64,000 nucleotides of DNA from an uncultured Chloroflexia bacterium (GCA_963841545.1 CAWJDE010000008.1:59957-123956), one strand, 5' to 3'. Numbered from the stretch's first letter, positions 26,220 through 48,153 are shown. Notes: a model not told the origin generated them from the sequence alone. Program-made: numbers and translations.

Positions 26220-27797
26220 TCAGCCCCGTTCGAGCTTTCGGTCCAGGCCTCGCTTGACCACGTACAGGAACGCGGCGTTGAAGGCGATGAACGCGAGCAC
26301 GATGATCATCGCCTGCCGGCGGAACATGCTCTCGTCAACCTTTGCCGTCGCCATCGCCTCGGCGGCCTCGGCCTTCGTCCGGGCATCCTGGGACAGGTCG
26401 GCCACCTTGGTCAGCTTCGTGGTATGGACGGCCGCCTGCGCCTGGATGAGGCTGGTCTTGGCATCTGCCAGCGCGACCTCCGCGTCCGAGGTGATCATGC
26501 CCAGCCGGGCGGCCTCCTCGATCCGACCGGCTGCCCCGTCGTAGGCTTCCTGGGCCGAGTTGACCGCGTTCGCGATCCCCTGGATCTGCGCGTAGATCTG
26601 CGAATCCGGATGATGGCAGGTGTCGCACCGCCGGTCCGACTCGTCCGCGAAGCGGCTGAGCTCGATGCGGAGGGTGTGCGTCTGGAGGTCGTGGCAGGTG
26701 TCGCACGTGTAGTCCGGTGTGTCCGGGTGGAAGAACAGCTGCGAGCCCGGCTGCGACACGTCGTGGGTGCCGTGACAGGTCCAGCACTTGGGTGCCGCGG
26801 CCTGGAGCTCGGAGTGCCGGCTCTCCTGGTACAGGTCCTGGGTGGCGGTATGACACTTGCCGCACACATCGACCACGGTCTCCGAGGTCGGCGGCTTGGC
26901 GTCGTGCGATCCATGGCATGAGGCGCAGCTCGGCGCCCGGACGTCCTTGTTGTCGAGGAGCGCGACGCCGTGAACGCTCTTCGAGTAGATCGCGAACTGG
27001 TCGGTCGGGATCCCGTACGGCTCCATGCGCTGGGCATCCGCGTGGCAGCTCGCACAGAGCTCCGGAACGTTGAGCACGAACACCTTCGCCGACGGATCGG
27101 ACACCTTCTTGATGTCGTGCGACCCGTGGCAGTCGATGCATGTCGCGACGCGGGTGTCGTTCTCGCCCGCCAGTCGCTGACCGTGAACGCTCGCCCAGTA
27201 TTTCGCGTACTGGTCGGTGGACAGGCCGGAGGCACGCATCCGCTCGATGTTGGCGTGGCAGCTGCCGCACAGGCCAACGGCCCCCATCCGGTCCGGCGCG
27301 CCGACGAACCCGTTGGCGGGATCCATGGCGACGGTGATCTGGTCCGATCCCGGGTCACCCCCGTGGCAGTCCGCGCAGCCCACACCCGCCTGGGCGTGGA
27401 CGCTGCCGCTCCAGGCCGCGGCGATCGTCGCCTGTTCGTCGTTGACGTCGCTGTGGCAGTCGTAGCAGCCGTTGGCGCCACCCCCGTCGGGGTGTGCGAT
27501 CGGGTCGGGCAGCGGGGGGGCCGATACGACCGGGATCTCGGGCGTCGGCACGGGTGTCGCGAACAGCCAGTCGAAGTTGGAGGCCGAGGGCGTGCTGACG
27601 GGTGTCGCCGCCGGCCGCGGGCTGGCCGACTCCGCGGCTCCGGCGCTCGGATCCTGGGCCGCCGCCGACCAGGCGAACAGCAGCCACGCGAGCCCCAGCA
27701 GCCCGAAGGTCGACGCGGCCCGCACCAGCCGGCGTTCCGGCACCTGACGGCGCGGCCACGCTCGAGCGCGTGCCGGGCGAACCGGGTCAGCTGACAT
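26220..27797 (-). CDS. Decaheme cytochrome c with C-terminal membrane anchor
   Basis: 10 CXXCH (CYDCH, CADCH, CGSCH, CIDCH, CASCH x2, CGKCH, CWTCH, CDTCH x2); N-terminal signal; Ala-rich helix plus C-terminal TM. Confidence 0.92.
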   Translation of the reverse strand: MSADPVRPARARAWPRRQVPERRLVRAASTFGLLGLAWLLFAWSAAAQDPSAGAAESASPRPAATPVSTPSASNFDWLFATPVPTPEIPVVSAPPLPDPIAHPDGGGANGCYDCHSDVNDEQATIAAAWSGSVHAQAGVGCADCHGGDPGSDQITVAMDPANGFVGAPDRMGAVGLCGSCHANIERMRASGLSTDQYAKYWASVHGQRLAGENDTRVATCIDCHGSHDIKKVSDPSAKVFVLNVPELCASCHADAQRMEPYGIPTDQFAIYSKSVHGVALLDNKDVRAPSCASCHGSHDAKPPTSETVVDVCGKCHTATQDLYQESRHSELQAAAPKCWTCHGTHDVSQPGSQLFFHPDTPDYTCDTCHDLQTHTLRIELSRFADESDRRCDTCHHPDSQIYAQIQGIANAVNSAQEAYDGAAGRIEEAARLGMITSDAEVALADAKTSLIQAQAAVHTTKLTKVADLSQDARTKAEAAEAMATAKVDESMFRRQAMIIVLAFIAFNAAFLYVVKRGLDRKLERG

Positions 27798-28860
27798 AGC
27801 CGTACACGGTGAGCACGATCATGGCCACCAGCACCAGGGTCGCGGCTCCCACCACCAGCTTGCGCCGTCGCGCGAGCACCTCCGGGCTGCGGTCGAGGAA
27901 CGGCCACACGAGGAGCACGCCGATGCCGATGATCGGGGCGAGCACGGCGGCCGTGCGGGGGATCACCTTGAGCAGCTGGTAGACGGCGAGGTAGTACCAC
28001 TCGGGCTTGATATGGGCCGGTGTCTGGAGCTGATTGGCCTGCTCCTCGAGGCCGGCAGGGAACAGCGACGCGAGCACGACCAGGATCGCGAGGATGACGT
28101 ACCAGGCCACGATCTCGTCCAACAGGTAGTTCGGGTAGAAGGGCCGCAGCGGCTCCGCGTCGTCCTCGGCGGTCCGCACCCGCGGCTCGGGTTTCCGGGG
28201 ATTGGCGAGGCCAAGCTGGTGCACCAGCACGAGGTGGGCGGCCATCAGGCTGGCCAGCGCCAGCGGCAGGACCAGCACGTGGATCCCGAAGAACCGGCTC
28301 ATCGTGTCGCCGGTCACGTCCGGACCGCCCCGCAGCAGCTGCAGCAGCGAGTCGCCGACCAGCGGAACCGAGCCCGCGATGTCGGTGCCCACCACCGTGG
28401 CCCAGTACGCGCGCTGGTCCCACGGCAGCAGGTAGCCGGTGAAGCCGAAGCCGAGGGTCACCAGCAGGAGACCACCGCCGATGACCCAGGTCAGCTCGCG
28501 CGGGTACTTGTAGGCCGCCTGGAAGAAGACCCGCAACAGGTGGAGGGCGACGAACAGGATCATCAGGTTCGCGGCCCAGTGGTGCAGGCTCCGGATGAGC
28601 CAGCCGAAGCTCACGTCGCTGGTGACGAACTGGACGCTCTCGTAGGCCGCATCGGGGGTCGGCTTGTAGTACAGGGTCAGGAGCGTGCCGGTGACCACCT
28701 GGATGCCGAACAGGAACAGCGCGATCCCGCCGAAGTACATCGTCCGGGCCGACATCGGGATCCGCACGTGGAGCAGCGCACCGATGACCGGGCCGAGGCC
28801 CGTCCGCTGCTCGACCCAGGTCGGTGTTCGGGCGCGTCCCGCGCCGGGACCTGCGGCCAT
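27787..28860 (-). CDS. Cytochrome b of a Rieske/cytb complex (b6 plus subunit IV fused)
   Basis: GWLIRSLHHW...LHLLRVF, GYLLPWDQ, H-x14-H, IKPEWY. Confidence 0.93.
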   Translation of the reverse strand: MAAGPGAGRARTPTWVEQRTGLGPVIGALLHVRIPMSARTMYFGGIALFLFGIQVVTGTLLTLYYKPTPDAAYESVQFVTSDVSFGWLIRSLHHWAANLMILFVALHLLRVFFQAAYKYPRELTWVIGGGLLLVTLGFGFTGYLLPWDQRAYWATVVGTDIAGSVPLVGDSLLQLLRGGPDVTGDTMSRFFGIHVLVLPLALASLMAAHLVLVHQLGLANPRKPEPRVRTAEDDAEPLRPFYPNYLLDEIVAWYVILAILVVLASLFPAGLEEQANQLQTPAHIKPEWYYLAVYQLLKVIPRTAAVLAPIIGIGVLLVWPFLDRSPEVLARRRKLVVGAATLVLVAMIVLTVYGYVS

Positions 28861-28861
28861 C

Positions 28862-29374
28862 TCAGGCCTCGCTCAGGAAGATCTGCTCGCCCTCGACCGA
28901 GACGGTGAGCGGCGACAGCGGCGCCGGCGGCGGCCCGGACACGACCGCGCCCGAGCCGGGATTGAACCGGCCGTCGTGGCATGGGCACTGGATGACGCCG
29001 GCGAGGTCGTTCCAGGCCACGACGCAGCCAAGGTGGGTGCAGATCGCCGAGTACGCCCGGATGCCCTGCTCGGTGTTGACGAGGATCGCGGGCTTGCCGC
29101 CCAGCGGCACCACCTTGCCGCCGCCCGGAGGGACGTCGGACGTGGTCGCGACCAGGACCTTGCCACCGCCGCCGGCCCGCCCGGTCGCCGGCGGCACGAG
29201 GAAGCCGAGGACGGGGGTGACCACCATGGCCAGGGTCGAGAACACGGTCAGGCCACCGAGCCAGCGCAGGAACCCGCGTCGCGTCTGCGTGTCAGCGGGA
29301 TCCGCAGCGACGGCTCCGGAGGGCGCGGGCCCACCCGGCACGGGCTCGGGCGCGCTCGCGGGGTCGTCGTCCAT
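28862..29374 (-). CDS. Rieske Fe-S subunit of Rieske/cytb complex
   Basis: Tat TRRGFL plus TM; CTHLGC, CPCHDG, GPPP; start approximate. Confidence 0.9.
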   Translation of the reverse strand: MDDDPASAPEPVPGGPAPSGAVAADPADTQTRRGFLRWLGGLTVFSTLAMVVTPVLGFLVPPATGRAGGGGKVLVATTSDVPPGGGKVVPLGGKPAILVNTEQGIRAYSAICTHLGCVVAWNDLAGVIQCPCHDGRFNPGSGAVVSGPPPAPLSPLTVSVEGEQIFLSEA

Positions 29375-29660
29375 GGCAGCCTCCGGCGGGGGCCGAATGG
29401 CCCGCCGCTCGCCTCCCTGATGGACCGACATTGTGCGAGCCACAGCCCGCCGGAGGAATGTGCGGATCGATAGAGAAGGCATATGCCTGGAGCGGCGCGA
29501 CGGGTTCCGCGGGTCCGACACCCCGTCGCCCGGGCCAGGGAGCCCGGGCGGCCGCGACGAGCCGCGTGCGGTGTTGGCCGCCGTTTCTCCTCCAAGCCTC
29601 GGGCCACCGGCGCTTGCCGGCGCGACGCGTGGCGTCGTGGGGTGGCGGCGCGGTTGCCCC

Positions 29661-31513
29661 TCAGCCGCCCGGGGCCAGCGGCCAGCTGAGACCGGACGGC
29701 TGGTCCGGGACCTGGCCGCTGGTGCCGATCGAGAACGGCGTGGTGACCGGCAGCACGGGGTCGGCGTGGCAGCGCGCGCAGTAGACCGGCTGATGGCAGT
29801 AGGCGCAGGCGGTGTTGCCCTGGTCGCGGATCACCTTGGCGTGGTTGGTCGCCATCTCGTCGTGGTCGACGGTGACCGCACCGGTCGAGTGGCAGTTCAC
29901 GCAGAAGTCGCGAGCGTGGCACTCGCCGCACGTTGTCCCGCCGGGGTCGAGGTTGGTGGCGACGGACTTGTGGTCGAACACCCACAGGTTGTCCTCGTGC
30001 GAGTCCGGCGGCTGGCCGAGCGGCAGGCTGGCCACGGCCGGCCCGAGCTGCGGGAAGGTGTGGCAGGTGTCGCACGTGGACGGGATCGTCTTGTTGGTCG
30101 CCACGCCGTTCTCGACCAGGAAATGGCCACCGTCGTGGCACCGGAAGCAGCCGGGGAAGTCGAGATGACCGAGATTGTCCGGATAGGTCTTCGCGGTGAC
30201 CTTCATCTCGGGTGTCGCCGCCGTCTGGTAGATGTCCTTGATCTGCGTGATCGCCGTCTGGATCTCGGCCGACTTCGTTGCCGAGACCGACGGGTAGTTG
30301 ACCGCGTAGAAGGTGGTCAGCTCGTCCACCGCGGCCTCGGCTGCGGCGTCGTCCGGATACGACCCCCACAGGATCCGCATGCCCTCGCGCTTGATGAACG
30401 GGAGCGAGGGGTCGATGGCGCCGGTCGAGAGCTCGTAGTCGAGCTCCGTCCGGGGGTTGGGGATCGGGTGGCCGACGCGGTTGTGGCAGTCGTAGCAGGA
30501 CATCGTGGTCGAGCTCTGGTCGGCCTGGATACGGGTGACGTCCGGGGCGACGTGACCGGAATCGCTGATGGCGGCCTGGCTGAGGTACTCGCGGACGACG
30601 CCGTCCTCGCCCGTCGCCTCGACCAGATCGATCCGGGAGCCGTTGGCGTCCGGCGACCAGTAGTTCACGGTCCGCAGCACGTGCCAGTGGACGCTCGTGT
30701 TGATGTCGAACACATCGCCGCCCGCGGGCCGGACGAGGAGCCCGACGAACTGGCGCGTGTTGGTCTCGTCCTCGGCGTACACGGTCGTCGTCTTGAGCAT
30801 GGTGACCACGTGCGACGCGACCGCATGGCAGCGCTGGCAGGTGACGGCCGCTCCGGGCAGATCGGAGTGTTCCGGTGGCGGGATCGGCGTCGGGAACGTC
30901 CCCAGGACCACCTCGACCAGCTGACGGGTGCCGTTGAGCTTGGCCTTGATCCAGCCGGCGATGCCGGGCTCCACATGGCACTCGGCGCACGCGACGTCAC
31001 GATGCGGGCCGGCCTCATAGGCCGCGAGCTCGGGCGCCATCGTGTGGCAGCGGCCGCAGAAGTCGGCGGTCTCGGTCCAGTTGAGCAGCGACACCGCGGA
31101 GAAGGTTGCGACGCCGCCCAGCCCGGTCAGGACCAGGATCAGGGCGAACAGCCCGCTCCTCGATGCGGGCAGCCGGAGGCGGCGACCGCGCAGGTAGAAC
31201 GGGTGGCGCCGGCGGCGTGGGGCGGTCGCGACCGGGGTGTCGGCGGTCGCCGCAACGGGTCCAGCCTCGCCCGGGTCGGCGCTCGCGGGCTGGTCGGCGC
31301 TCGCGGGCTGGTCGGCGCTCGCGGGCTGGACGTTGCGCTCGCGGGCTGGTCGGCGCTCGCGGGCTGGTCGGCGCTCGCGGGCTCGGTGCCCGTCGGGGTC
31401 GGTGCCGCGTCGATCTCCGACCCGCGGCCGGCCGACGATGCAGCGACCTCTGGCGCCGGCTCGACGTCGGGATCCGCCGGGAGCTGGTCGCCGGGCAGGG
31501 TGGGATCGGACAC
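29661..31513 (-). CDS. NapC/NirT-like membrane-anchored decaheme cytochrome c (apparent frameshift near 31332)
   Basis: GTG at 31513 is out of frame with TM plus WTET.DFCGRCH..M, H..V.CAECH; 10 CXXCH in 29661..31094. Confidence 0.85.
31279..31383. repeat. 18-bp coding tandem repeat (PASADQ), about 5.7 units, one aberrant 20-bp unit
   Basis: gcgctcgcgggctggtcg units; unit 31315-31334 reads gcgctcgcgggctggacgtt. Confidence 0.9.
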
Positions 31514-31520
31514 GGAAGGG

Positions 31521-32120
31521 CTACTGGACGATGGACGCGACGGCGCTGTCCATCTCCGACCTTGGCAGCGCGCCGATCCGGATGTCCTTGATCCGGCCGT
31601 CGGCGCCGATGAAGAAATGCGTCGGGATCCCGAGCGTGCGGTAGCTCGATGCGATCGTCTCGCTCTGGTCGACGGCGATGGGGAACGTCAGGCCGGCCCG
31701 CTGGGCATAGGCGCCGATGTCGGCGCTGCTCTCATCGATGAACACGGCCAGCACCACCAGGCCCTGGTCGCGGTAGGCCTCGTACGCGGCCTCCACGTCG
31801 GGCGCCTCGGTCCGGCAGTCGGGACACCACGACGCGCCGAACGTCAGCCATACGGGCTTGCCCGCGTAGTCGGCCAGCGAGACCGTCGTGCCGTCCCACG
31901 TCTTCGCGGTGAAGTCGGGCGGCATCGCCCCGACCGCCGGCGCGGCGCCGGCGACGTTGCCGGTGAGATTGACGGCGGTCACGCCGTCGTCCGTGCCGGG
32001 ACCCGAGATGACCCACGCCAGCGCCCCGATCACGATCGCCGTCACGCCGATGACCGCGATCGTCTGGACCCGGCTCGCCCCGCCGCGGGCGGGCCGCGCC
32101 GTCATGCCTGCAGCGCCCAT
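31521..32120 (-). CDS. resA: ResA/TlpA thiol-disulfide oxidoreductase
   Basis: TM anchor, GKPVWLTFGASWCPDC, GIPTHFFI. Confidence 0.9.
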   Translation of the reverse strand: MGAAGMTARPARGGASRVQTIAVIGVTAIVIGALAWVISGPGTDDGVTAVNLTGNVAGAAPAVGAMPPDFTAKTWDGTTVSLADYAGKPVWLTFGASWCPDCRTEAPDVEAAYEAYRDQGLVVLAVFIDESSADIGAYAQRAGLTFPIAVDQSETIASSYRTLGIPTHFFIGADGRIKDIRIGALPRSEMDSAVASIVQ

Positions 32121-32148
32121 CTCGATCGCTCCCGTCGTCAGCGGCAGC

Positions 32149-33222
32149 TCAGCCGAGGCCGGCGTAGCTGTGGAGCCCGCCGAAGAAGTAGTTGCCGAAG
32201 TAGGTGAAGAGGGTTGCCTCGAACCCCAGCACCAGCAGCCAGGCTGCCCGGCTGCCGCGCCACCCGCGCATCACGCGAGCGTGCAGGTAGGCCCCGTAGA
32301 TGAACCACGTCACCAGGGACGCCGTCTCCTTCGGATCCCAGCTCCAGTACGCGCCCCAGGCCACGTTGGCCCAGACCGCGCCGAGGATGATCGTGAGCGT
32401 CAGGAACGGGAAGCCGATGACGACGGCGTGGTAGCCGATCTCGTCGAGCACCTGCGGCTTGGGCAGGCCCCAGCGGGCCCCGCCGGACTCGAGCGCGGCC
32501 AACCCCGCGGCCGGACCATAGGCAACCCGGCGGAGGGCGGCCACCGCCACGCCCACGAGGATCGACACCGCGATCCCGGCCAGGACGGCGCTGCCCGCGC
32601 CGTCGGCGACCAGGAAGCCCGCGCCCACCACCAGCCCGGCGACGGCGCCCAGCAGGAAGGTCGGGGCCGACCCGGTCTGGACCAGGTACAGGGCCGAGGC
32701 GGCGAACGCGATCGCGAACGAGCCGTAGGCGACGATGGCGACGGCGACGTGGACGGTGAGCAGCAGGTTGTTCTGGAGGGCCGGCACGAGCGGCTCGATG
32801 TCGGCCGGGATGGTCGCGGCATAGACCATCATCGCGAGGCCCACGGGCAGCGCGACGAGGGCCAGGATGCGCTGGTGGTAGCGGCGCTCGAACCACATGT
32901 AGGCGGCCAGCACGCCGAACGCGAACGCCATCGAGAACTCGTACATGTTGGCGAACGGTCCGTGGCCGGTCGCGACGGTGCGGAACGCGAGGCTCGCCAG
33001 CAGGGCCAGCACCGCCAGCCACCCGACGATGGTCGCGTAGCGCCCGATCGCGGCCGTGCGCGGGCCGGAGACGAAGCCCATGGCTCCGGTCGTGACCTGG
33101 AGCCCGGCGGTCTGCATCCGCGCGGCCCGCAGCCCGGACACCGCGTACATCAGGTAGAGGAGCGTCGCCAGCCCGGTGCTGAGCATCGCCGCCACGAAGG
33201 CGTATTCGGACATCTTTGCCAT
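32149..33222 (-). CDS. ccsA: Cytochrome c biogenesis protein CcsA/ResC (System II heme lyase)
   Basis: GHGPFANMYE, PALQNN.L..H, GAVWA..AWG.YWSWDPKE, GLHSYA. Confidence 0.95.
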   Translation of the reverse strand: MAKMSEYAFVAAMLSTGLATLLYLMYAVSGLRAARMQTAGLQVTTGAMGFVSGPRTAAIGRYATIVGWLAVLALLASLAFRTVATGHGPFANMYEFSMAFAFGVLAAYMWFERRYHQRILALVALPVGLAMMVYAATIPADIEPLVPALQNNLLLTVHVAVAIVAYGSFAIAFAASALYLVQTGSAPTFLLGAVAGLVVGAGFLVADGAGSAVLAGIAVSILVGVAVAALRRVAYGPAAGLAALESGGARWGLPKPQVLDEIGYHAVVIGFPFLTLTIILGAVWANVAWGAYWSWDPKETASLVTWFIYGAYLHARVMRGWRGSRAAWLLVLGFEATLFTYFGNYFFGGLHSYAGLG

Positions 33223-33235
33223 GACCCGTACTCCC

Positions 33236-34705
33236 TCAGGCCCGCACGGGCGCCTGGAGCGCCGCGCGGACGTCACTGACCAGCTTGTCGAAATCGGTTC
33301 CCAGCGCCGCCTCGCGGCTGCCGAGGCTCGCCATCGCGAGCACCGCGCCGTCCCTGGCGCGTGGTGTGATCCGTGCCCACACGCGCTTGTGCGGGAGCAT
33401 GAAGCGGAGGGCGAAGCCACCGAACAGGAGGGCGCCACCCAGCCAGACCAGCAGCACGCCGGGATCACGTGCGACGTTGAGCCCGGTGAACTTGCTCTCA
33501 CGCTCGAAGGTGACCGTCAGGTCGCCGACGGTCGAGGCCGTGCCCTGGTCGAGCACCTGCTGCGCGACCTGCTGCCCCGAGTCCGCGGCGTACAGCTCGA
33601 GCTCCATCTGGCCGGGCTTGATCGTGGTGTCGCCGTTGCCGAGCGTTCCGACGACCCAGCCGACGTAGTTCGTGCCGGGGATGTTGAACGAGCCGATCGG
33701 CCGGTTGTCGTTGGTCGTGCGCCAGGCCAGCGGCACGCCCTCCGACACCAGCGTGTTGCCGCCGGCGTCGGCCACGGTCATCACCGCCGCCGAGCCGAAG
33801 AAGGCCTGGTAGAAGGTCGTGTCGCCGTACGTCAAGGGGTCGTTGACCCGGATCGTGTGGCGCGCCACCTCGGTGCCGTCCTTGTACAGGACGACCTGGC
33901 TTGCGTAGTCCTCGGGCGCCCCGGTGGTGGCGTAGTACGTGTCGGTGAAGTCGATCAGCTGGATCGACAGCCCGGGCTCGGACCCGACCGGGAGCGTGTT
34001 GCCCTCGGCGATGGTGAAGCTCGAGTTCCGGTAGCCGAAGGTCGCGCCGATGATGACGCCCGCCAGGATCACCACCAGCGCCACATGGCCGATGAGGCCG
34101 GCGAACAGCACCCAGCGGAACCGGTCGGCGTAGACGTGCACCGTCCCGTCGTCCGTCGACAGGGTGCGGTACCGGCGGTGACGAAGCACGCCCGCCACGA
34201 TCGCGAGCGTCTCGGCCGGGGTGTGCCGGACGACGATCGCCTCGTGCTGCGGGGCATGCTCGAAGAACGCGGATCCCACGTCGAGCCGGGGCTTGGTGAT
34301 CGTCCGCCAGACGCCCGGTGTGCGGTGGATGGAGCAGGCGATCAGGCTGATCGTGAGCGCCGCCATCAGGATCCGGAAGGCCACCGAGCTGAACACCTGG
34401 AACAGCTGGAGCGAGTCCAGGATCCCGGTGAAGGCGCCGTACTTGGGGCGGACCTCGGCCAGCCAGTCGGCCTTCGCCTGGGCGTCGTCGAGCACGCCGG
34501 CCGGCGCCTGGATGATCAGGGAGCCCGCAACGCCAAGGACGGCCAGGGCGAGGATCAGGACCATCGCCAGGCGCATCGACGTCAGGAAGTGCCAGAGGCC
34601 CTCGAGACCCTGGTCGACGCGATCCATCGGTCCCGGCTTGGCGGCCACCCGGGCGGCGGGGGCCGCCGCCGGGGACATCTGGCGGGAGCCAGCCTCGTGG
34701 GTCAT
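33236..34705 (-). CDS. resB: Cytochrome c biogenesis protein ResB/Ccs1
   Basis: FLTSMRLA, SLIACS..R, IGH, IRVNDPL...FYQ, ARDPG. Confidence 0.92.
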   Translation of the reverse strand: MTHEAGSRQMSPAAAPAARVAAKPGPMDRVDQGLEGLWHFLTSMRLAMVLILALAVLGVAGSLIIQAPAGVLDDAQAKADWLAEVRPKYGAFTGILDSLQLFQVFSSVAFRILMAALTISLIACSIHRTPGVWRTITKPRLDVGSAFFEHAPQHEAIVVRHTPAETLAIVAGVLRHRRYRTLSTDDGTVHVYADRFRWVLFAGLIGHVALVVILAGVIIGATFGYRNSSFTIAEGNTLPVGSEPGLSIQLIDFTDTYYATTGAPEDYASQVVLYKDGTEVARHTIRVNDPLTYGDTTFYQAFFGSAAVMTVADAGGNTLVSEGVPLAWRTTNDNRPIGSFNIPGTNYVGWVVGTLGNGDTTIKPGQMELELYAADSGQQVAQQVLDQGTASTVGDLTVTFERESKFTGLNVARDPGVLLVWLGGALLFGGFALRFMLPHKRVWARITPRARDGAVLAMASLGSREAALGTDFDKLVSDVRAALQAPVRA

Positions 34706-34718
34706 GTCCGACGACCTC

Positions 34719-35505
34719 CTACAGACCGAAGGGCGACCCGATCGTCGCCAGGCGGCCGAGCGTGTTGGTGAACATCAGCACGCCGACCGTCACGAGCAGG
34801 CTGCCCGTGGCCAGGGAGACGACGTGGTGGTGGCGGCCGACCCACGTCAGACGTCGTGAGACCCACGACGCCCCGAGGGCGACAGCCAGGAACGGAACGG
34901 CGAGGCCCGCCGCGTACGCGATCAGCAGCACGGTGCCCTGGACGACGCTCGCGGTGGCCGTGGCCAGCGCCAGGATCCCGCCCAGGATGGGTCCGATGCA
35001 CGGGCTCCAGCCGGCCGCGAACAGCGATCCGAACACGAGCGACCGGCCGTACGAGGGCGAGCCGCCGGGCGAGCCAACGATGCTGCTGCCTCGCGACAGG
35101 CCGCCCAGACCGGGTCCGCCGGCTGCGACGAGCGTGCCGCCCATGGCGGGCATCATCCGGGTGTCACGCCACAGCGCACGGACGTTGATCACGCCCGCGA
35201 CCTGGAGCCCGAGAAACACCAGCAGGGCGCCGCCGGCCATCGTCAGCAGCCGCTTGTGATCGGCGAGCACGTAGCCCACCGCCCCGATCGAGGCCCAGAA
35301 GGTCACGAACACGAGCGAGAACCCGATCGTGAACGCGAGGCCGTGGAGGAAGGCGGCGCGCCGGCCGGCCGCTGCCGTCGCCGGTCGCGCCGACCATGTA
35401 GCTCAGGTACGCCGGCACGAGCGGCAGGCAGCACGGGGACGCGAACGACACGACGCCGCCGGTGAAGGCGATGCCGAGGCCGAGCGCGCTGCCCAGGTCG
35501 CTCAT
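34719..35505 (-). CDS. ccdA: CcdA/DsbD transmembrane disulfide transporter (apparent frameshift about 35360-35385)
   Basis: SFASPCCLPLVPAYL in one frame, GWSPCIGPILG in another; length 787 nt = 3n+1. Confidence 0.85.
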
Positions 35506-39520: not shown

Positions 39521-39572
39521 CGAGCCAAGGTTCCTGCGTGCTGGGGGCGCTGGGACGCCGGTGGATGGTGGG

Positions 39573-40853: not shown

Positions 40854-40918
40854 CAGCTCACTCCTGGGGCGCATCGTTGCGGTGCTTCGTCGGGGTCACG
40901 GTCATCGGCCTTTGGGGT

Positions 40919-40950
40919 GTGGTGGCCGGGACGAGGTCGCCGGCCACCAC
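40919..40950 (-). terminator. 11-bp perfect stem-loop just downstream of paralog A (terminator or mRNA-stabilising hairpin)
   Basis: GTGGTGGCCGG...CCGGCCACCAC; no U-tract on the coding strand. Confidence 0.55.
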
Positions 40951-40963
40951 GGTTGAGCCCTTG

Positions 40964-42232: not shown

Positions 42233-42340
42233 ACTGTCCTCACCTCCTTTCTTGCACTGCGGGTTGTGGAATGGGCCGCCCGTTGTCGGCGGCGACTGCA
42301 GGATTCGGGCCTCACCTCCCCTCTCGCTTCGTGTTGGGCT

Positions 42341-43426
42341 CTAGTAGCTCCAGACCTGGACCCGATCGTTCGCGGAGTCGGTCACGTAGATCCGCCCGCG
42401 GCCGTCGACGGCCAGGCCGTTGGGAAACTCGAACTGTCCGTTGCCGACGCCCTGCTCGCCGAACGAGCCGAGGAAGTCGATGTGGTCGGCGCCGGGCTCC
42501 AGGGTCGCGTAGACGAACACGGCCTGGCCGCTGGAGTCGGCGACGTACACCTGGTTGCGCCCGTCGACCACGATCCCGCGCGGGAGGCCGAGGTCGCCCT
42601 CGCCCACGCCGCGGCCGATCTGGGCGGCGATGTTGCCGTCGCCGTCGAACACGAGCAGCCGGCCGTTGTTGCCGTCGGTCACGTACACGTTGCCCGCGGC
42701 GTCGACGGCAACGCCGTTGGGGAACGACAGGCCGGCGTCGGCACCGATCGTCCGCACCAGCGCACCCGACGGGTCGAACTCGAGCACCTTCTGGGGGTTG
42801 GCCCCGACGTCGGTGACGAACAGGTCGCCCGTCGCGTCGAACGCGATGCCGAGCGGCTGCCAGCCCGGGACGCCGTCGGGGCTGAACTGGCGCAGGTAGC
42901 TGCCGTCGGCGTCGTACACGTAGATCGATCCGGTCGGCCGGTCGGTCACGAAGACCTCGGACGTCACCGGGTTGAAGGCGACGTAGACGGGCACGTGGTC
43001 GGTGCCGGTCGAGACCGGCGGCTGCATCTGGCCCAGCTCGTTGCCGGAGCCGTCCATCACGCGTGCGATCTTGTCGCCCTCGGTCTGGCCGACCCACAGC
43101 CGGTCGCCGGCACCGTTGACGGCGACGCCCATCGGGCGGTCGACGCCGTAGGCCGCCGTGACGTAGCCCGGCATCACGACCCGGCCCGGGACGGTGGGCA
43201 GGGGGATCGGCTGGCGGAACAGGAGGTACCAGATCGCGAGCGCGAACAGACCGAGCAGCGCCCCGAACAGCAGCAGGAGCAGGAGCACCTTGCGCCGGCG
43301 ACGATCGGGCGGCTGCTCCTCTTCGGTTCCCGTCGGGGGGACGGAGACGTCGGGCGGAAGCTCGTCCGCCTGGGGCCCGGGCTGCGTGCCGGGGATGGGC
43401 TGGGCAACGGCGGGGGACGCGCTCAT
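42341..43426 (-). CDS. Membrane-anchored NHL-repeat beta-propeller protein
   Basis: N-terminal TM; six repeats such as FPNGVAVD.AGNVYVTD..N.R. Confidence 0.9.
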   Translation of the reverse strand: MSASPAVAQPIPGTQPGPQADELPPDVSVPPTGTEEEQPPDRRRRKVLLLLLLFGALLGLFALAIWYLLFRQPIPLPTVPGRVVMPGYVTAAYGVDRPMGVAVNGAGDRLWVGQTEGDKIARVMDGSGNELGQMQPPVSTGTDHVPVYVAFNPVTSEVFVTDRPTGSIYVYDADGSYLRQFSPDGVPGWQPLGIAFDATGDLFVTDVGANPQKVLEFDPSGALVRTIGADAGLSFPNGVAVDAAGNVYVTDGNNGRLLVFDGDGNIAAQIGRGVGEGDLGLPRGIVVDGRNQVYVADSSGQAVFVYATLEPGADHIDFLGSFGEQGVGNGQFEFPNGLAVDGRGRIYVTDSANDRVQVWSY

Positions 43427-44406
43427 CAGTTGCTCCCTTCGGTCGGCACGGACGGAGCGGCGGACGATGCGGGTGCGCCGGTCCGGCTCAGGCCGAGCTT
43501 CGCGGACGTGCTGTCGGGATCGAGGGCGACGGCCTTCGCGTACCAGCTGCCGGCGGTCGCCGGGTCGCCGCGCGTCTCCGCCACCAGCCCGAGCCCGATG
43601 TCCACCTGGACCATCGCCGCGGTGTCGGTGGACTGGATCGCCTGCAGCCGGGCGTCGGCGCCGTCGACATCGCCGTCGGCGAGATCGCCCATCGCCGACG
43701 CCCATTCGGCGAGCGCCGGCTTGCCGGCCGCCGTGTAGGCCTCGGCCAGCGTGCGGTAGGGCTCGGCCCAGCCGATCGGGACGAACTCGACGGCGCGGCT
43801 CAGGGCCTCGATCGCCTTGTCGGTGTCACCGGTCTTGACGAACGCGGCGCCGATCAGGTTCATCGCATCGGCGTCGGTGCGGTTGATGCCCAGGGCCTTG
43901 GTCAGGTTGTCGATCGCATCCTGGGGCCGGTCCTGCTGGAGGGCGATCGAGCCCAGCCCGTAGTACGCGGCCTCGAGCGCGGGGTCGACGTTCGCCATCT
44001 CCGTGTCCACGAGCAGCCCGACGACCTTCTCGTAGTCGGCCTTGGCCGCGTCGAGCTGGCCGCTGAGCAGGTACGCCCGCCCGCGGCTCGCGTACCCCTC
44101 CTTGTCGGCCTTGCCGGTCCCGATGATCTCGGTGTACTGGGCGATCGCGTCGTCGTAGCGCTGGGCGGCCAGGTAGACGTCGGCCAGCCGGCCACGCGAG
44201 GCAACGTCGGACGGGTCGCTTCGGACGGCGTCCTCGAGGGCCGCCAGCTCGCGATCGACGATGGGGGCGGCCGGCGCGCGGAAGCGGTCGACGGCGTAGA
44301 ACGCGACGAATGCGATGACGCCCACCAGCAGCAGCAGCGCGACCCGCCGGATCCAGCGGTTGAGCTGTGCTTCGGGCATCTCGGCCAGGGACGTGACCCG
44401 GAACAT
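43426..44406 (-). CDS. Membrane-anchored TPR protein
   Basis: N-terminal TM followed by multiple TPR-like helix pairs; start approximate. Confidence 0.85.
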   Translation of the reverse strand: MFRVTSLAEMPEAQLNRWIRRVALLLLVGVIAFVAFYAVDRFRAPAAPIVDRELAALEDAVRSDPSDVASRGRLADVYLAAQRYDDAIAQYTEIIGTGKADKEGYASRGRAYLLSGQLDAAKADYEKVVGLLVDTEMANVDPALEAAYYGLGSIALQQDRPQDAIDNLTKALGINRTDADAMNLIGAAFVKTGDTDKAIEALSRAVEFVPIGWAEPYRTLAEAYTAAGKPALAEWASAMGDLADGDVDGADARLQAIQSTDTAAMVQVDIGLGLVAETRGDPATAGSWYAKAVALDPDSTSAKLGLSRTGAPASSAAPSVPTEGSN

Positions 44407-44510
44407 GGATGGCACCTTCACTCCACGGTCGGCGGAATTGGACGAACCGACCTGTGGCAATGCTCACGCGCGCGTAGGGGTGGTGCCCATCCGTCGGGGG
44501 ATAGAGTTGC

Positions 44511-44550
44511 GATACAGGCGCGGTGCGCGCGAGCGCCGGGCGCCTGTATC
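44511..44550. promoter_or_regulatory. 11-bp perfect inverted repeat (hairpin or operator)
   Basis: GATACAGGCGC...GCGCCTGTATC between the Rieske and TPR genes. Confidence 0.45.
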
Positions 44551-44642
44551 GACCGGCCCAGCCGTGCGGGCGACAGGCTCGCGCCGGGCAAGGCTCGCGC
44601 GCCACGTCCGACGTCCGCCGCGAGGCCGCGCGTCGGCTCGGT

Positions 44643-45134
44643 CTAGGGCACCGACTCCCGCGGCGTGGCGAAGTTGGACGGGACGTCCACCTCGATCCCG
44701 TTGCCCACCAGCCGCAGCGGCAGGCGGTCGAGCGCCCGGGGAGGAGGGCCGTGCAGCACGGATCCGTCGAGCGCGAAGGCGCCGTCGTGGCAGTGGCACG
44801 TGAACTGACCGTCGGCCGCGGACCACGAGTAGGCGCACAGCGCGTGGGTGCAGCGCGGATCGAAGGCCACGATGTCACCGTTGTCCTGGCGGACGAGCCA
44901 CGTCGATCCCGCGACCGTGGTGCTCCCCTCGGTCAGCGTGAACGGGACCTCGGTCGGGATCCCGACCTCGAGCGTGGTCGGGTCGACGTCGAGCCGGACG
45001 GGGATCGGCGGGCCCGCGCACCCCTGGAGGAGCGCCCCGAGGCCGCCACCCGCGGCCAGCGCGCCGGCACCCATCAGGATCAGCACGCGGCGGCGAGGCA
45101 CGGGCGCGGCGAGCGGGTCGGAGCGATCGGCCAT
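44643..45134 (-). CDS. Rieske [2Fe-2S] protein, Tat lipoprotein-like
   Basis: PRRRVL...LLQGC; CTHALC, CHCHDG, GPPP. Confidence 0.88.
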   Translation of the reverse strand: MADRSDPLAAPVPRRRVLILMGAGALAAGGGLGALLQGCAGPPIPVRLDVDPTTLEVGIPTEVPFTLTEGSTTVAGSTWLVRQDNGDIVAFDPRCTHALCAYSWSAADGQFTCHCHDGAFALDGSVLHGPPPRALDRLPLRLVGNGIEVDVPSNFATPRESVP

Positions 45135-45147
45135 GGTGGGCCGAAGC

Positions 45148-45648
45148 CTAGCCCGGAATGACCACCGGCTGCAGGCGCTCCACGTCCGGACGGCCATCCT
45201 CGTTCGTGCGGGCGCCGACCGCGGCGCGGATCGCCGCCAGGAACTCGTCGGGCCGGGACGAGAGCGTCTCGCGTCGAAGCGTCCAGGCGCTGGACGTCGT
45301 GATGTCCACGTCGAGCACGAGCGCGCAGCGTGATCGCCGGACGATATCGGCGGCATCGATGGCGCCGCCCTCCTCGACCACGATCACGGCCGGCTCGCGG
45401 GCGAGCGCGGCCGCCACGGCCTCCGGCTGGGTGATGTCGACGGCGTCCACGACCACGCCCGGCTCGTCCGCGAGCATGCGGCCCAGCCCCTCGCCCAGCA
45501 GGGCGTGGCTGTACAGCACCAGGATCTGTGCCGGCTGCGATGACACCAGGAAGGCTCCCACCCCACGACGCACGACGGGCGGCATCGGGGCGCCCGTGCG
45601 GCCGATGCTAGGGGCCGGGGGCGGTGCGTCCAATCCGTCGCCCGGCAC
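45148..45648 (-). CDS. Hypothetical protein, degenerate receiver-like domain
   Basis: ILVLYSHALLGEGLGRML...PAVIVVE...EFLAAIR resembles a REC fold; start uncertain. Confidence 0.6.
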   Translation of the reverse strand: MPGDGLDAPPPAPSIGRTGAPMPPVVRRGVGAFLVSSQPAQILVLYSHALLGEGLGRMLADEPGVVVDAVDITQPEAVAAALAREPAVIVVEEGGAIDAADIVRRSRCALVLDVDITTSSAWTLRRETLSSRPDEFLAAIRAAVGARTNEDGRPDVERLQPVVIPG

Positions 45649-45692
45649 AGCCGGCGACCTCGTCGCTGTATCCGACGGGATAGCCGCGAAGG

Positions 45693-46385
45693 TCAGTCGG
45701 TCGCTGCCTCGGGCGCCCTCAGGCCCTTTCGCACGGCGTAGGCGGCGGCCTGGACGCGGTTCGTCAGGTGGAGCTTCTCGAGCGAGTTGTGGACGTGGTT
45801 CTTCACGGTGCCCTCGGTGATCGACAGCTCGTTCGCGATCTCCTTGTTGGACAGCCCGTTCGCCACCAGCTCGAGGATCTCCGATTCGCGCCGGGTCAGG
45901 GTGTTGTCCTCGGCGGGCATCGCGCCCGGACCACGTCCCGGAAACCCGCCGGTTCGGAGCGCATTCAGGAGCTTGGACGCGACGGCCGGCGAGATCGGTG
46001 CCTCGCCACGCATCACCCCCCGAAGGTCCTCGAACAGCTGCTCCGGCCGGACGTTCTTGAGGAGATACCCGTTCGCGCCGGCCTTGATCGACTCGAACAG
46101 GTCATCGTCGTCCTCGGACACGGTGAGCATCACGATCGGCGTCGCGAAGCCGGCGGCACGAATGGCCGATACGCCGTCCACCCCCGTCGCGCCCGGCATG
46201 TTGACGTCCATCACGACCAGGTCCGGCTGGAGGGCGCGCACCTTGTCCAGCGCGTCACGCCCGTTCTCCCCCTCACCCACGACGACCATGTCGAACTGGT
46301 TGCCGATCAGCGTCGCCAGCGCCCTGCGGAACAGTGGCTGGTCATCGACGAGCAGCACCCGGAGCTTGGGTGGAAGGTGTCCCAC
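45693..46385 (-). CDS. NarL/LuxR family response regulator
   Basis: VLLVDD, DLVVMDVNMP, GANGYLLK, LTRRE...GLSNKEIA...TVKNH. Confidence 0.93.
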   Translation of the reverse strand: MGHLPPKLRVLLVDDQPLFRRALATLIGNQFDMVVVGEGENGRDALDKVRALQPDLVVMDVNMPGATGVDGVSAIRAAGFATPIVMLTVSEDDDDLFESIKAGANGYLLKNVRPEQLFEDLRGVMRGEAPISPAVASKLLNALRTGGFPGRGPGAMPAEDNTLTRRESEILELVANGLSNKEIANELSITEGTVKNHVHNSLEKLHLTNRVQAAAYAVRKGLRAPEAATD

Positions 46386-48153
46386 GCGTCTCCTCAGCCT
46401 CGAGCCGGACGACGATCTTCGTCCCGTCTCCCGGGGCAGTATGCACGGAGATCGTGCCACCGACCTGTTCCACCCGCTCGCGCATCGAGGCGAGCCCGAA
46501 GCCACCCTCCATCGACCCCGCGACGGTCGCCGGGTCGAAGCCGACGCCGTTGTCCTCGATCGTGAGCGTGGTCACCGGACCGTCGCACTCGATCCGCACG
46601 GACGCGCGGGTGGCGCGCGAGTGCTTGCGGGTGTTGGTGAGCGCTTCCTGGACCACCCGCAGCAGCTGGACCTCCGCGCGCGGCGTCAGCCCGCGGCGCG
46701 TGTCGCCGTCGCACGTGAACGCGGCGGCGATCCCGGTCTGGCGGCTGTACTTGCGCAGGTACTCGCGCAGCGAGCCCTCCAGCCCGCCGTCCTCGCGGAC
46801 GGTCTCCCGGAGGCCGAGGATCGCCTCGCGCACGTCCTGGTACGCCTCGTCCGCCGTCTCGGCGAGCTTCGAGAGCTCGCCCGCCATCGTGTGGCTCGCC
46901 TCGTCCACGGCGCGGGACTCGAGCGCCCGGAGCTGGAGGTGGATGACGCCCAGGACCTGGGCGAGGCTGTCGTGGAGCTCGCGCGCGATCCGGTCGCGCT
47001 CGGCATGGATCGTCCACTGCTCCTCGGCCTCGTGCAGCCGGGCCGTCCGCACGGCGATCGCGGCCATGTCGGCGAGGGCGCCCAGGAGGTGGCGCTCGGC
47101 GGGGCTGAACGGGTGCCCCGAGCGCACGACGCACAGCTCGCCCAGGACGCCGTCGGGGCCGCGCAGCGGCCGCGATGCCCAGCTCGCGGTCTCGTGGCCG
47201 GTCACCAGCGGGCACGTGGGGTTCGGGGCGTGGTGGGCACCCCTGGCAGCATGGGCCACGTGGCACACGCTGCCGTCGTCGGCCATCGCCAGCCGGTCGC
47301 GCACCGCCGATGCCTTGCCCTCGGCCTCCCTCGGATCGGACAGGCAGGCGACCGCCCGCTCCGCGCCCAGCAGGTCCCGTGCATGCCCCGTGATCGTGTC
47401 CAGCACGTCGCCCAGGTCGCCGCGACCGGTGAGCTGCAGCGCGACCTCGTACAGCGCCTCCCGCTCCCGCTCCCGGCGGTGCAGGTCGGCGAGCGTCCGG
47501 CCGAGCTGGGCGGCACCCGCGATCTCGCCCGCGATGTCGACGAACGCGGCGTCCGAGATGTCGGGCTCGACCGGCGGGTGGAAGACGAGGCGCACGTGGC
47601 CGAGCCGCTCGAGGCCGCGGATGAGGGCGAGATCGAGGATGCCGGTGTCGACCCCCATCCGGCGGCTGTAGCGCGGCGCGTCGAGCGCGGGGTCGGCGGG
47701 CTCGGCGAGGATCGGGCCCAGCCAGCCGAGGCCCGGCGCCAGCACGGCCGGCCGCCGGATGGTGAGCGGTGCTCCGTCGGCGGTCGAGATCGAGACCACG
47801 CCGGCGAGGGCGCCGGTCTGGGTGATCACGCGATCGAGCGCCTGCTCCAGCAGGTCGGGCAGCGACAGGCCCCCGCGGACCGCCGAGCTCACCGCGTGGG
47901 TGACGGTCAGGTCCTTGTTCTGGGCGACGAGCTGCTTCTGCGTCCGGTCGAGGTAGACCGAGACCACCGTGGCAAACGCCACGATCGCCGCACCCATGAT
48001 CATCGCCGAGGCGACGTGCCCTTCGTCGCCGGTGAGGCGCGGATCGAGCACCAGGAAGCGGACCAGCTCGAACACCCAGACGAAGACGACGGGCAGCACC
48101 ATCGTCGCCCACTTGAGCCGGTTGAGATCACGGACTTGCTGGGGACCGCTCAT
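46342..48153 (-). CDS. NarX-type (HisKA_3) sensor kinase with GAF domains
   Basis: Two N-terminal TMs; ERDRIARELHDSLAQ, QEALTNTRKH, DNGVGF, GFGLASMRER. Confidence 0.92.
   Translation of the reverse strand: MSGPQQVRDLNRLKWATMVLPVVFVWVFELVRFLVLDPRLTGDEGHVASAMIMGAAIVAFATVVSVYLDRTQKQLVAQNKDLTVTHAVSSAVRGGLSLPDLLEQALDRVITQTGALAGVVSISTADGAPLTIRRPAVLAPGLGWLGPILAEPADPALDAPRYSRRMGVDTGILDLALIRGLERLGHVRLVFHPPVEPDISDAAFVDIAGEIAGAAQLGRTLADLHRREREREALYEVALQLTGRGDLGDVLDTITGHARDLLGAERAVACLSDPREAEGKASAVRDRLAMADDGSVCHVAHAARGAHHAPNPTCPLVTGHETASWASRPLRGPDGVLGELCVVRSGHPFSPAERHLLGALADMAAIAVRTARLHEAEEQWTIHAERDRIARELHDSLAQVLGVIHLQLRALESRAVDEASHTMAGELSKLAETADEAYQDVREAILGLRETVREDGGLEGSLREYLRKYSRQTGIAAAFTCDGDTRRGLTPRAEVQLLRVVQEALTNTRKHSRATRASVRIECDGPVTTLTIEDNGVGFDPATVAGSMEGGFGLASMRERVEQVGGTISVHTAPGDGTKIVVRLEAEETRGTPSTQAPGAARR

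Follow-up and report, generated by a model that had tools for sequence, protein, structure and literature searches.

A multiheme cytochrome island and its genes

We analysed a window of 64,000 nucleotides from an uncultured Chloroflexia bacterium (GCA_963841545.1 CAWJDE010000008.1:59957-123956), and in it a 22-kb block at positions 26220-48153 where genes for five multiheme c-type cytochromes stand together with genes for candidate quinol-oxidising, cytochrome-maturation, accessory and regulatory proteins. An initial annotation had read this block as a self-contained, porin-less island for cytochrome nanowires and extracellular electron transfer (EET). Genes were called by third-position GC (GC3) in a window of 72-75% G+C and then checked with Pfam and NCBIfam. 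The block comprises 18 genes, co-oriented as first described and all on the minus strand (Table 1), with a transcription order of histidine kinase (HK), response regulator (RR), 166-aa open reading frame (ORF), Rieske 2, TPR2, NHL, MHC6a, MHC6b, MHC8, TPR1, CcdA, ResB, CcsA, ResA, NapC10, Rieske 1, cytochrome b and MHC10a. Of the families named at the outset, the following scored over the Pfam cutoffs: the NapC/NirT N-terminal region, Cytochrome_B with Cytochrom_B_C, Rieske (twice), AhpC/Redoxin (the ResA-like protein), Cytochrom_C_asm (CcsA), ResB, DsbD_TM (CcdA), TPR (twice), NHL, Response_reg with GerE, and GAF with HisKA_3 and HATPase. All four components of cytochrome-maturation System II (ResB/CcsB and CcsA with CcdA and ResA) are therefore recognised by Pfam. 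The start of Rieske 1 is uncertain, the likely ATG lying at 29374, and its boxes CTHLGC...CPCHDG were read from the sequence; Rieske 2 has no adjoining cytochrome b partner gene. With all 18 genes assigned, no space is left for a beta-barrel gene, in line with the earlier failure to recognise one, and the block does not have the layout of porin-cytochrome systems (MtrCAB/Pcc), in which a diderm host encodes a barrel alongside the cytochromes.

The count of 40 heme motifs given before was upheld as 39 CXXCH and one CX3CH, distributed as ten in MHC10a, ten in NapC10, seven CXXCH plus the CX3CH in MHC8, and six each in MHC6b and MHC6a. In the whole 4.04-Mb assembly only seven coding-like ORFs have at least two CXXCH, and five of them lie in the island, a clustering far beyond chance. 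The sole sizeable multiheme cytochrome outside the island is a 264-aa protein with seven CXXCH on another contig (G000:C7:42004-42798; L095 4005-4799, minus strand), which has an N-terminal transmembrane (TM) anchor and a P/S/G/A-rich tail.

Table 1. Genes of the island and of the formate dehydrogenase (FDH) neighbourhood, in window coordinates
Feature	Position	Strand	Evidence or remark
fdhD	25327-26208	+	left of island, confirmed
MHC10a, decaheme c-type cytochrome	26220-27797	-	10 CXXCH; Pfam Cytochrom_c3_2, Cytochrome_C7, Paired_CXXCH_1
Cytochrome b, b6 and subunit-IV-like part fused	27787-28860	-	Cytochrome_B 2.7e-52, Cytochrom_B_C 3.7e-17; PEWY in sequence
Rieske 1, bc/b6f-type, twin-arginine leader	28862-29521	-	Pfam Rieske 5.9e-15; NCBIfam b6-f Rieske 1e-21, sub-cutoff
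NapC10, NapC/NirT/NrfH-type anchored decaheme	29661-31513	-	10 CXXCH in 29661-31094; Cytochrom_NNT 2.3e-8; NrfH (2J7A) E = 0.0017
ResA-like membrane-anchored thiol-disulfide oxidoreductase (System II accessory)	31521-32120	-	AhpC-TSA 2e-27, Redoxin
CcsA (ResC), System II heme handling/ligation subunit	32149-33222	-	Cytochrom_C_asm 3.1e-45
ResB (CcsB), System II subunit	33236-34705	-	Pfam ResB 3e-72
CcdA, thiol-reductant transporter	34719-35505	-	Pfam DsbD_TM
TPR1, single-pass membrane protein, extracytoplasmic TPR domain	35502-36782	-	TPR_11, TPR_19; TPR_CcmH_CycH sub-cutoff
MHC8, 8-heme tethered protein, 819 aa	37061-39520	-	Pfam Paired_CXXCH_1, Mtrc-MtrF_II-IV_dom
MHC6b, secreted hexaheme, 433 aa	39573-40874	-	6 CXXCH; 56% identical to MHC6a; in alignments A1 and A3
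MHC6a, secreted hexaheme, 422 aa	40964-42232	-	6 CXXCH; OmcS-like family
NHL, membrane-anchored six-bladed-type beta-propeller	42341-43426	-	Pfam NHL 8.5e-28
TPR2, single-pass membrane TPR protein	43426-44406	-	Pfam TPR_1, TPR_2 and others
Rieske 2, bc-type, twin-arginine leader, lipobox-like LLQGC	44643-45134	-	Pfam Rieske 1.1e-10; CTHALC...CHCHDG
Small conserved ORF, 166 aa, 18th gene	45148-45648	-	no Pfam match at E <= 0.1
NarL/LuxR-type response regulator, start uncertain	45693-46385	-	Response_reg 6.5e-28, GerE 1.6e-20
Membrane sensor histidine kinase, GAF + HisKA_3 + HATPase	46342-48153	-	Pfam
FeS-only alpha-type FDH subunit, 356 aa	48318-49385	-	ends just after CPYCGVGC...HGHLCVKGRFG region
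FdsB-like NuoE/F fusion	49382-51352	-	right of island
Molybdopterin-domain frame, ~740 aa, one in-frame TGA (possible selenocysteine)	57480-59675	-	~9 kb further right

Conservation and modularity of the island

A pattern search based on the hexaheme alignment gave at least 403 places in species-representative genomes, from which 77 distinct loci were kept. Both 10-kb flanks are present for 46 of these, and the counts below are for those 46 unless stated. NHL and TPR2 were found in all of them, RR in 44, the small ORF in 43, Rieske 2, ResB, CcsA and ResA in 42 each, NapC10 and HK in 41 each, CcdA and TPR1 in 38 each, and MHC8 in 37. The order and orientation of the markers were identical in every testable locus (42 of 42, each with at least six of the 11 markers), so that the cluster, collinear and co-oriented throughout, is conserved as a unit, a point that had been singled out for checking. 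The small ORF occurs in 54 of the 77 related loci and forms a 48-locus family in the clustering. The core of the island consists of NapC10, System II, the two TPR proteins, MHC8, the tandem hexahemes, NHL, Rieske 2, the small ORF and the two-component system.

The Rieske 1/cytochrome b/MHC10a trio stands outside this core as a separable, optional module. It lies mostly beyond the 10-kb flank of the loci, but in a genome of the same genus (G278) the island occupies the same site and has no trio, and of 151 genomes sampled from the family 18 have MHC10a. In the genomes that both searches named, MHC10a was seen only where the hexaheme is present, mostly 7-12 kb from it, while one hexaheme-positive genome (G185) has no MHC10a match. 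Two quinol-oxidising entry points had been proposed for the island; the Pfam families of both hold, whereas the Rieske/cytochrome b complex proves to be an optional entry and not a core one.

Of the 301 genomes sampled from the class, 25 gave the hexaheme, as did 21 of 91 other family members and nine of 12 other members of the genus. Inside the island the G+C content is 0.70-0.73, compared with 0.74-0.75 in the flanks, and the GC skew is positive across it. Near the cluster in 11 related loci there is also a protein of ~216 aa with a PCYCGC motif (for example, L027 9581-10231), for which the window has no counterpart.

Candidate entry modules and the tethered octaheme

NapC10 has an acidic cytoplasmic tail, an RR pair and a TM helix that shares its frame with the hemes, and a CXXCHxM at heme 1 was read from its sequence. 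The N-terminal anchor and tetraheme module of the NapC/NirT/NrfH family are recognised by Cytochrom_NNT at 34.4 bits against a cutoff of 24.1, and six hemes lie beyond that module. Because NapC10 stays below the NCBIfam equivalog cutoffs for NrfH, TorC and NapC, we regard it as a member of the family and not as an ortholog of any of the three.

The optional trio has the parts of a bc1/b6f-type complex: both cytochrome b domains, PEWY, the Rieske boxes and an anchored c-type subunit, which here is a decaheme in place of c1/f. MHC10a starts with a signal or anchor and has, towards its C-terminus, a coiled-coil stretch and a TM helix, the latter read from the sequence as a hydrophobic helix; it has a weak match to MtrA (6R2Q, E = 0.0043). 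With this c1/f-like topology it is a candidate for the c1/f-equivalent subunit of the adjacent Rieske/cytochrome b complex, and from adjacency and co-occurrence we infer that the three proteins would form one complex.

MHC8 consists of a signal or anchor, ~170 aa of P/S/T/A/E-rich repeats, a ~240-aa domain and a ~410-aa domain with the eight hemes, a layout that makes it a candidate for a wall-spanning tether with a surface-exposed terminal cytochrome. The tether is encoded by overlapping 12- to 36-bp tandem repeat arrays at 39042-39384. This linker is the least conserved part among orthologs, and many tblastn matches begin after it. For the ~240-aa middle domain there was no match in Pfam, and the ESM Atlas returned only unnamed clusters with a score of 0.87.

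Octaheme enzymes with one odd heme motif exist, and we considered whether the island is a respiratory branch confined to the envelope, with a soluble acceptor and with MHC8 or another member acting as a catalytic reductase instead of a wire. The atypical CX3CH is conserved in 42 of 43 orthologous heme domains compared, the middle domain is without an assigned family, and the surface location of the island cytochromes is predicted only, all of which would fit such a branch. Against this, none of the five cytochromes reached a Pfam or NCBIfam cutoff for the catalytic families NrfA, HAO/ONR, Otr or MccA, and none has a CXXCK motif, which bears on the earlier concern that they might be nitrogen or sulfur reductases. 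The MHC8 heme-domain profile matched the PDB through its generic paired-CXXCH part only (OmcE 0.0032, MtrA 0.011, NrfA 0.19), and ten invariant non-motif His suffice for all-bis-His ligation of the domain. The long tether, the OmcS-like hexahemes and the head-to-tail model described below also fit a spanning structure better, and we judge a confined branch to be improbable.

Among the accessory proteins, TPR1 is a candidate chaperone for multiheme apocytochromes, NHL a candidate scaffold or assembly factor, and Rieske 2 a candidate tethered high-potential carrier. The kinase matched PDB entries on its DHp and ATPase parts only (DesK, VraS and the ATPase domains of DevS and DosT). A role as a heme-GAF oxygen sensor like DevS or DosT is unsupported, the matches to those two covering the ATPase domain alone.

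Relation of the hexahemes to OmcS

MHC6a and MHC6b are, like OmcS, secreted proteins of ~400 aa with six CXXCH. Both have cleavable-looking signal peptides, the six motif columns are invariant or nearly so across 65 sequences, and the mature N-terminus of MHC6a opens with a conserved DGGPH. The family is large, with 1695 representatives at E <= 0.001, 939 at <= 1e-10 and 389 at <= 1e-30 in an exhaustive search; a separate hexaheme search gave at least 1665 matches. When a single hexaheme sequence was compared with the PDB, no match was found. A profile of 33 sequences placed OmcS first at E = 0.021, and the 65-sequence profile (A3) again placed OmcS first (6EF8/6NEF), at E = 1.4e-7 and 34.2 bits. 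The A3 alignment joins profile positions 175-333 to OmcS 127-339 with hemes 3-5 collinear, and hemes 1-2 appear in weak collinear sub-alignments. These profile alignments indicate that the island hexahemes are distantly homologous to OmcS.

Outside the motifs, His 29, 152 and 201 are invariant in the 65-sequence alignment and His 52, 347 and 361 nearly so, a number sufficient for bis-His ligation of six hemes. HMMER pairs His52, in a weak sub-alignment, with the His of OmcS CEGCHTMH, which we take to be an inter-subunit heme ligand, although the motif is generic to paired-CXXCH modules. The CAGCHRAH motif or its N-terminal His was also tried as an OmcS-specific signature and rejected: a profile of the N-terminal ~95 residues had MtrA as its top match (E = 5.4e-7), while OmcS scored only E = 5.7 and at another position.

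An AlphaFold2 (AF2) model of MHC6a from the 65-row alignment reached pLDDT 81.4 and pTM 0.83, with only residues 19-55 (the N-terminal arm) poorly defined; it supersedes an earlier model from 33 rows that was unusable (pLDDT 42.1). When two copies of the mature protein were modelled together, the prediction scored 0.61, and the best of three controls scored 0.00. In a benchmark the mark was reached by 20 of 30 solved same-chain pairs and by one of 23 solved single chains, a calibration that is rough here as an alignment of our own was used. The runs agreed in at least 94% of contacts, with a partner pLDDT of at least 84. The modelled interface is asymmetric, residues 28-60 and 201-203 of one copy facing 119-123, 168-169 and 323-414 of the other, and includes contacts of residues 52-53 with 342-347 and 376-378. 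As predicted, the N-terminal arm of one subunit would rest on the heme 4-6 end of the next, which fits an open-ended polymer.

Frame breaks in two genes

Two island genes are out of frame in the assembly. The N-terminal tail of NapC10 (from GTG 31513) is in a different frame from the TM helix and hemes, and the break site is an 18-bp tandem repeat of six copies (array 31274-31383), one copy of which has 20 nt. The repeats encode PASADQ-like units of the cytoplasmic tail. Tail, TM helix and hemes share one frame in all 22 NapC10 orthologs compared, and the 20-nt copy could stem from an error in assembly or from natural slippage of the repeat. In ccdA the N-terminus is in another frame, with a 1-nt break near 35372. 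A short-read contig from read run X1 (151 nt, depth 2, otherwise identical) is one base shorter exactly at 35372, and because of this the ccdA break is probably a consensus error, though the evidence is thin and X1 is possibly the window's own sample. Run X1, labelled as a soil metagenome, shows the largest DNA share (0.30) and may be the source of the window; the shares in runs X2-X5 are small (0.06-0.12), and no habitat inference was drawn from them. For 31000-35600 no RNA run was listed, which speaks neither for nor against expression.

The two breaks raise the question of whether the island is decaying and no longer working in this genome, being dispensable within the genus. The hexaheme was unmatched in three genomes of the genus (G137, G002 and G299), and several relatives have a hexaheme match in pieces. 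However, the X1 contig restores the ccdA frame, if only at depth 2, a second CcdA is present elsewhere in the genome, every part of the NapC10 N-terminus is there as in intact orthologs, and the remaining 16 genes are intact with coding-type GC3. We therefore hold decay to be highly improbable. The split hexaheme matches, in two to three adjacent pieces, come from genomes G164, G185, G062, G029, G245, G179 and G053, and could be consensus frameshifts, real pseudogenes or insertions.

The host and its respiratory background

The host assembly has 4.04 Mb in 13 contigs and is 91.8% complete. No WhiB, a marker of Actinomycetota, was found in it, and the named hexaheme relatives are Chloroflexota metagenome-assembled genomes (MAGs), many labelled Candidatus Limnocylindrales, with the exception of five Actinomycetota-labelled loci (L010, L074, L076, L077 and L078). 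For these two reasons we moved the host from a possible Actinomycetota to the Chloroflexota. Omp85/BamA, LpxC and LptD had no match in the 91.8%-complete genome, while diderm control genomes were positive. The host thus looks like a Limnocylindrales-type member of the Chloroflexota, apparently without an outer membrane, and an aerobic heterotroph; nothing in its relatives or its outer-membrane markers points to a known diderm metal reducer, a possibility raised with the first reading.

Two COX1 genes for heme-copper oxidases are present, one of which adjoins a diheme cytochrome c, a Rieske protein and a cytochrome b and forms with them an ordinary aerobic chain. Cytochrome b has two further paralogs elsewhere in the genome. 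Given the two COX1 genes and this separate diheme-c/Rieske/cytochrome b/COX1 locus, the island is an accessory branch. Further System II copies are found on other contigs (CcsA on C1, ResB on C12 and CcdA on C4, with ResA paralogs elsewhere), and since a second set exists, the set in the island is a dedicated one. The description of the island as self-contained accordingly stands insofar as it has its own System II by Pfam, but neither this system nor the bc complex is unique in the genome, which has a second System II and a housekeeping bc-aa3 chain. RuBisCO large subunit was not found in the 91.8%-complete genome, and its multicopper oxidases are not linked to the island.

A proposed route for electrons and its direction

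We propose, with a probability of roughly 0.55, that the island builds a cytochrome conduit linking the menaquinol pool, through the wall, with extracellular acceptors, with electrons flowing outward. We favour a use in which a heterotroph that is otherwise aerobic respires Fe(III)/Mn(IV) minerals, humics or partner cells. Each step of the route is inferred from protein families and anatomy. NapC10 would oxidise menaquinol at the membrane and serve as the core entry. Genomes with the trio would also oxidise menaquinol by the dedicated Rieske/cytochrome b complex with MHC10a as its c1/f-like subunit, a route that would allow Q-cycle energy conservation if the acceptor potential were high enough. 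Electrons would then pass to MHC6a and MHC6b, whose head-to-tail stack would make a heme wire through the wall, and on to the 8-heme domain of MHC8, which on its P/S/T/A-rich tether may be an outer or terminal cytochrome. ResA, CcsA, ResB and CcdA with TPR1 would mature the heme load, the NHL propeller and TPR2 may scaffold or assemble the extracytoplasmic parts, and the GAF-containing HK with the NarL-type RR would switch the island on, plausibly under oxygen limitation. The route is drawn without Rieske 2 and the 166-aa ORF.

The NapC/NirT/NrfH family consists of quinol dehydrogenases. Export is favoured because the core entry module belongs to this family, because electrons leave the cell in the nearest systems and because RuBisCO was not found. 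In the opposite direction, electrons from extracellular Fe(II)/Mn(II) minerals, reduced humics or partner cells would be taken up and passed to the heme-copper oxidases, and also through a reversed Rieske/cytochrome b complex to quinone. Rieske centres are usually high-potential, and the island has two Rieske proteins of the bc type in a host with two COX1 genes and a full aerobic chain. Here and below, statements on published systems refer to the parts of the cited papers that were consulted. In iron oxidisers, related Rieske/cytochrome b complexes have been proposed to run 'uphill' (PMC8280799), and the second, dedicated bc complex beside the housekeeping one recalls these separate 'uphill' bc complexes. 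The combination of NHL, TPR (NrfG-like) and CcsAB proteins also matches the uet cluster of Tenderia, which is proposed for electron uptake (10.1101/2022.05.06.490989). On the other hand, with no RuBisCO large subunit found there is no sign of lithoautotrophy by the Calvin-Benson-Bassham cycle, the NapC/NirT/NrfH-type core entry occurs in far more loci than the bc trio, the closest homologous or analogous systems (OmcS and Thermincola) export electrons, and the genome's multicopper oxidases lie apart from the island. Uptake is on balance unlikely. At one related locus (L038) the title of the MAG record contains 'Mn', which we take as a lead only.

Several points weigh against outward conduction through a wire. 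The high-potential Rieske centres, the aerobic host and the 'uphill' complexes of iron oxidisers make inward flow a serious alternative, and of the 301 class genomes sampled only 25 gave the island. The NapC10 frame is broken in the assembly, and the bin 31154-31307 has no cover in read runs X1-X4. Significance in the OmcS alignment is confined to the region of hemes 3-5, the N-terminal CxxCHxxH...CxxCH, a generic paired-CXXCH module, is matched in MtrA and OmcE as well, and the AF2 model shows a beta-rich insert between hemes 2 and 3 in the hexaheme family. Foldseek, run with this heme-free model against the PDB, gave nothing at E <= 0.001, and the matches listed did not include OmcS; loop-rich multihemes modelled without heme may defeat such a search. 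The two-copy result, likewise heme-free, may stem from the model having learned the solved OmcS filament, and it speaks for likeness and not for binding. The term nanowire in the initial annotation has computational support, from OmcS as the best PDB match (1.4e-7) and from the head-to-tail model (0.61), and none from Foldseek.

Comparison with known systems

The closest parallel by description is the ImdcA-PdcA-CwcA-OcwA chain of Thermincola potens and T. ferriacetica, a porin-less multiheme chain in cells without an outer membrane; there, CwcA has been modelled after OmcS (18% identity), and a polymer of it has been proposed to run through the peptidoglycan (PMC7911101). The chain's layout of a membrane-associated decaheme, a second decaheme, an OmcS-like hexaheme and a larger surface cytochrome (PMC7911101) resembles, in a comparison by description, the 10, 10, 6+6 and 8 hemes of the island. 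Unlike Thermincola, the island host is an aerobic, Limnocylindrales-type member of the Chloroflexota, one island decaheme is a predicted anchored subunit of a Rieske/cytochrome b complex and not a soluble carrier, and the terminal protein is a tethered 8-heme domain that is not detectably related to OcwA. The island is moreover one conserved operon-like block with System II, NHL, two TPR proteins, a Rieske lipoprotein and a two-component system.

With OmcS of Geobacter sulfurreducens the island shares a ~400-aa hexaheme, tandem paralogs as in omcS/omcT and a predicted head-to-tail contact through the N-terminal arm. Neighbours of omcS in the osc (omcS companion) operon are proposed to fold, secrete and shape the filament (PMC13194489, citing Shen et al. 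2025), and by description the island is similar in that accessory genes adjoin the OmcS-like cytochromes. It differs from Geobacter in having no outer membrane or porin-type secretion genes, in the insert between hemes 2 and 3, and in combining quinol-oxidising modules and maturation genes in the same block. An OmcS homolog at 28% identity has also been reported from a Coriobacteriales MAG (PMC7399161).

The uet cluster of Candidatus Tenderia electrophaga is alike in joining multihemes with NHL, dedicated CcsA/CcsB and TPR (NrfG-like) proteins and in its lineage-wide conservation (10.1101/2022.05.06.490989). Its host is a diderm gammaproteobacterium, it includes the beta-barrel UetC, an undecaheme and triheme c7-type cytochromes for the proposed electron uptake, and in the consulted parts of that source it has, unlike the island, neither a Rieske/cytochrome b pair nor an OmcS-like hexaheme.

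Anammox bacteria have Rieske/cytochrome b complexes whose c subunits are multiheme, and Geobacter uses ImcH, CbcL and CbcBA, one of them NapC/NirT-related, as parallel quinol-oxidising entries to one extracellular chain. The island is similar to the latter in the concept of alternative entry points, but those of Geobacter are not known to contain a Rieske protein or a PEWY-type cytochrome b. In the ANME-2d archaeon 'Ca. Methanoperedens', Rieske/cytochrome b with multiheme c has been discussed as a menaquinol:cytochrome c oxidoreductase (PMC5244752). The trio resembles the complexes of 'Ca. Methanoperedens' and anammox bacteria in having a multiheme c in place of the monoheme c1/f; those are proposed to feed nitrogen-cycle enzymes, whereas the partners in the island are OmcS-like and tethered cytochromes. 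In the literature searched we found no description of a decaheme c subunit with a C-terminal anchor in a Rieske/cytochrome b complex.

A Chloroflexi supergroup survey restricted its count to cytochromes of more than 20 hemes, and the island cluster is not described in the parts consulted (10.1101/2021.08.23.457424). Nor did we find a description of the cluster in Limnocylindria, Ellin6529 or CSP1-4 in a search whose scope was the literature other than the supplements of PMC7399161 and 10.1101/2021.08.23.457424 and Shen et al. 2025. The suggestion that the system is undescribed must therefore be narrowed: porin-less EET in a monoderm with an OmcS-like hexaheme has already been proposed for Thermincola (PMC7911101, parts consulted), while a description of this particular cluster was not found. 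What is new here is the lineage, the packaging, the link to Rieske/cytochrome b and the accessory set; the principle is shared with Thermincola and OmcS.

Cytochrome-based electron export without an outer membrane is, to our knowledge, documented only in a few thermophilic Firmicutes, and we know of OmcS-type wires being studied almost only in Geobacter. The hexaheme carriers found here are uncultured, are almost all Chloroflexota and have aerobic respiratory chains. It is possible, as a tentative wider picture, that Limnocylindria, an uncultured and nominally aerobic lineage common worldwide in soil and freshwater, respire through the wall by a polymer of the OmcS-like hexahemes, that trio-bearing genomes do so via a Q-cycle of the Rieske/cytochrome b-decaheme complex, and that the island has also moved into soil Actinomycetota. 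EET coupled to a Q-cycle would then be an energy-conserving entry unknown from Geobacter, Shewanella and Thermincola. If the island is functional, organisms so far not regarded as electroactive may account for part of the metal and humic redox activity of soils, and the block would offer a simple, porin-free gene set for testing the maturation, secretion and assembly of cytochrome wires across peptidoglycan. It would also be a natural experiment on EET with a Rieske/cytochrome b Q-cycle, since islands exist with and without the bc trio.

Insertion site and formate dehydrogenase genes

The distance from fdhD to the FeS-only FDH subunit is ~22 kb in the window and ~1 kb in a same-genus genome without the island (G137), where no remnant of an island gene was found between the two and a different ORF is present. 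The block is thus a variable gene island that is strongly syntenic. The ORF at the G137 site (G137:C2 ~621350-622440; L091 15350-16500) is a single membrane ORF of ~340 aa, of endonuclease/exonuclease/phosphatase type by eye only.

The island had been described as flanked by formate dehydrogenase genes. This holds for fdhD on the left; on the right, 'FDH' is corrected to an FdsB-like gene and the FeS-only subunit, the molybdopterin part following ~9 kb on. Genes for a NAD-type formate dehydrogenase are scattered in the window, with the same split in G137. The FdsB and FeS-subunit genes adjoin the island kinase in 23 of the 77 loci, and G137 keeps the FDH genes without the island; for these reasons the adjacency is an insertion-site position conserved in one clade and not a demonstrated functional link. 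Truncation of an FDH alpha gene by insertion of the island was considered and rejected: the island-less G137 matches the same ~347 residues and then continues into a different ORF, so that the FeS-only subunit is native. A 1177-aa frame of G137 with one TGA is probably a read-through from the upstream gene.

Between the FDH-related genes of the window there is a second NarL-type RR with a large HK (52598-55993, minus strand). In G137 the counterpart of window 52381-57540 measures ~1.3 kb and is without this second RR/HK stretch. Left of the island, at 23277-24764 on the minus strand, lies a 495-aa ORF with coding-type GC3 and no Pfam family at E <= 1e-5, whose sole match, at 0.022, is to a menaquinone-biosynthesis family.

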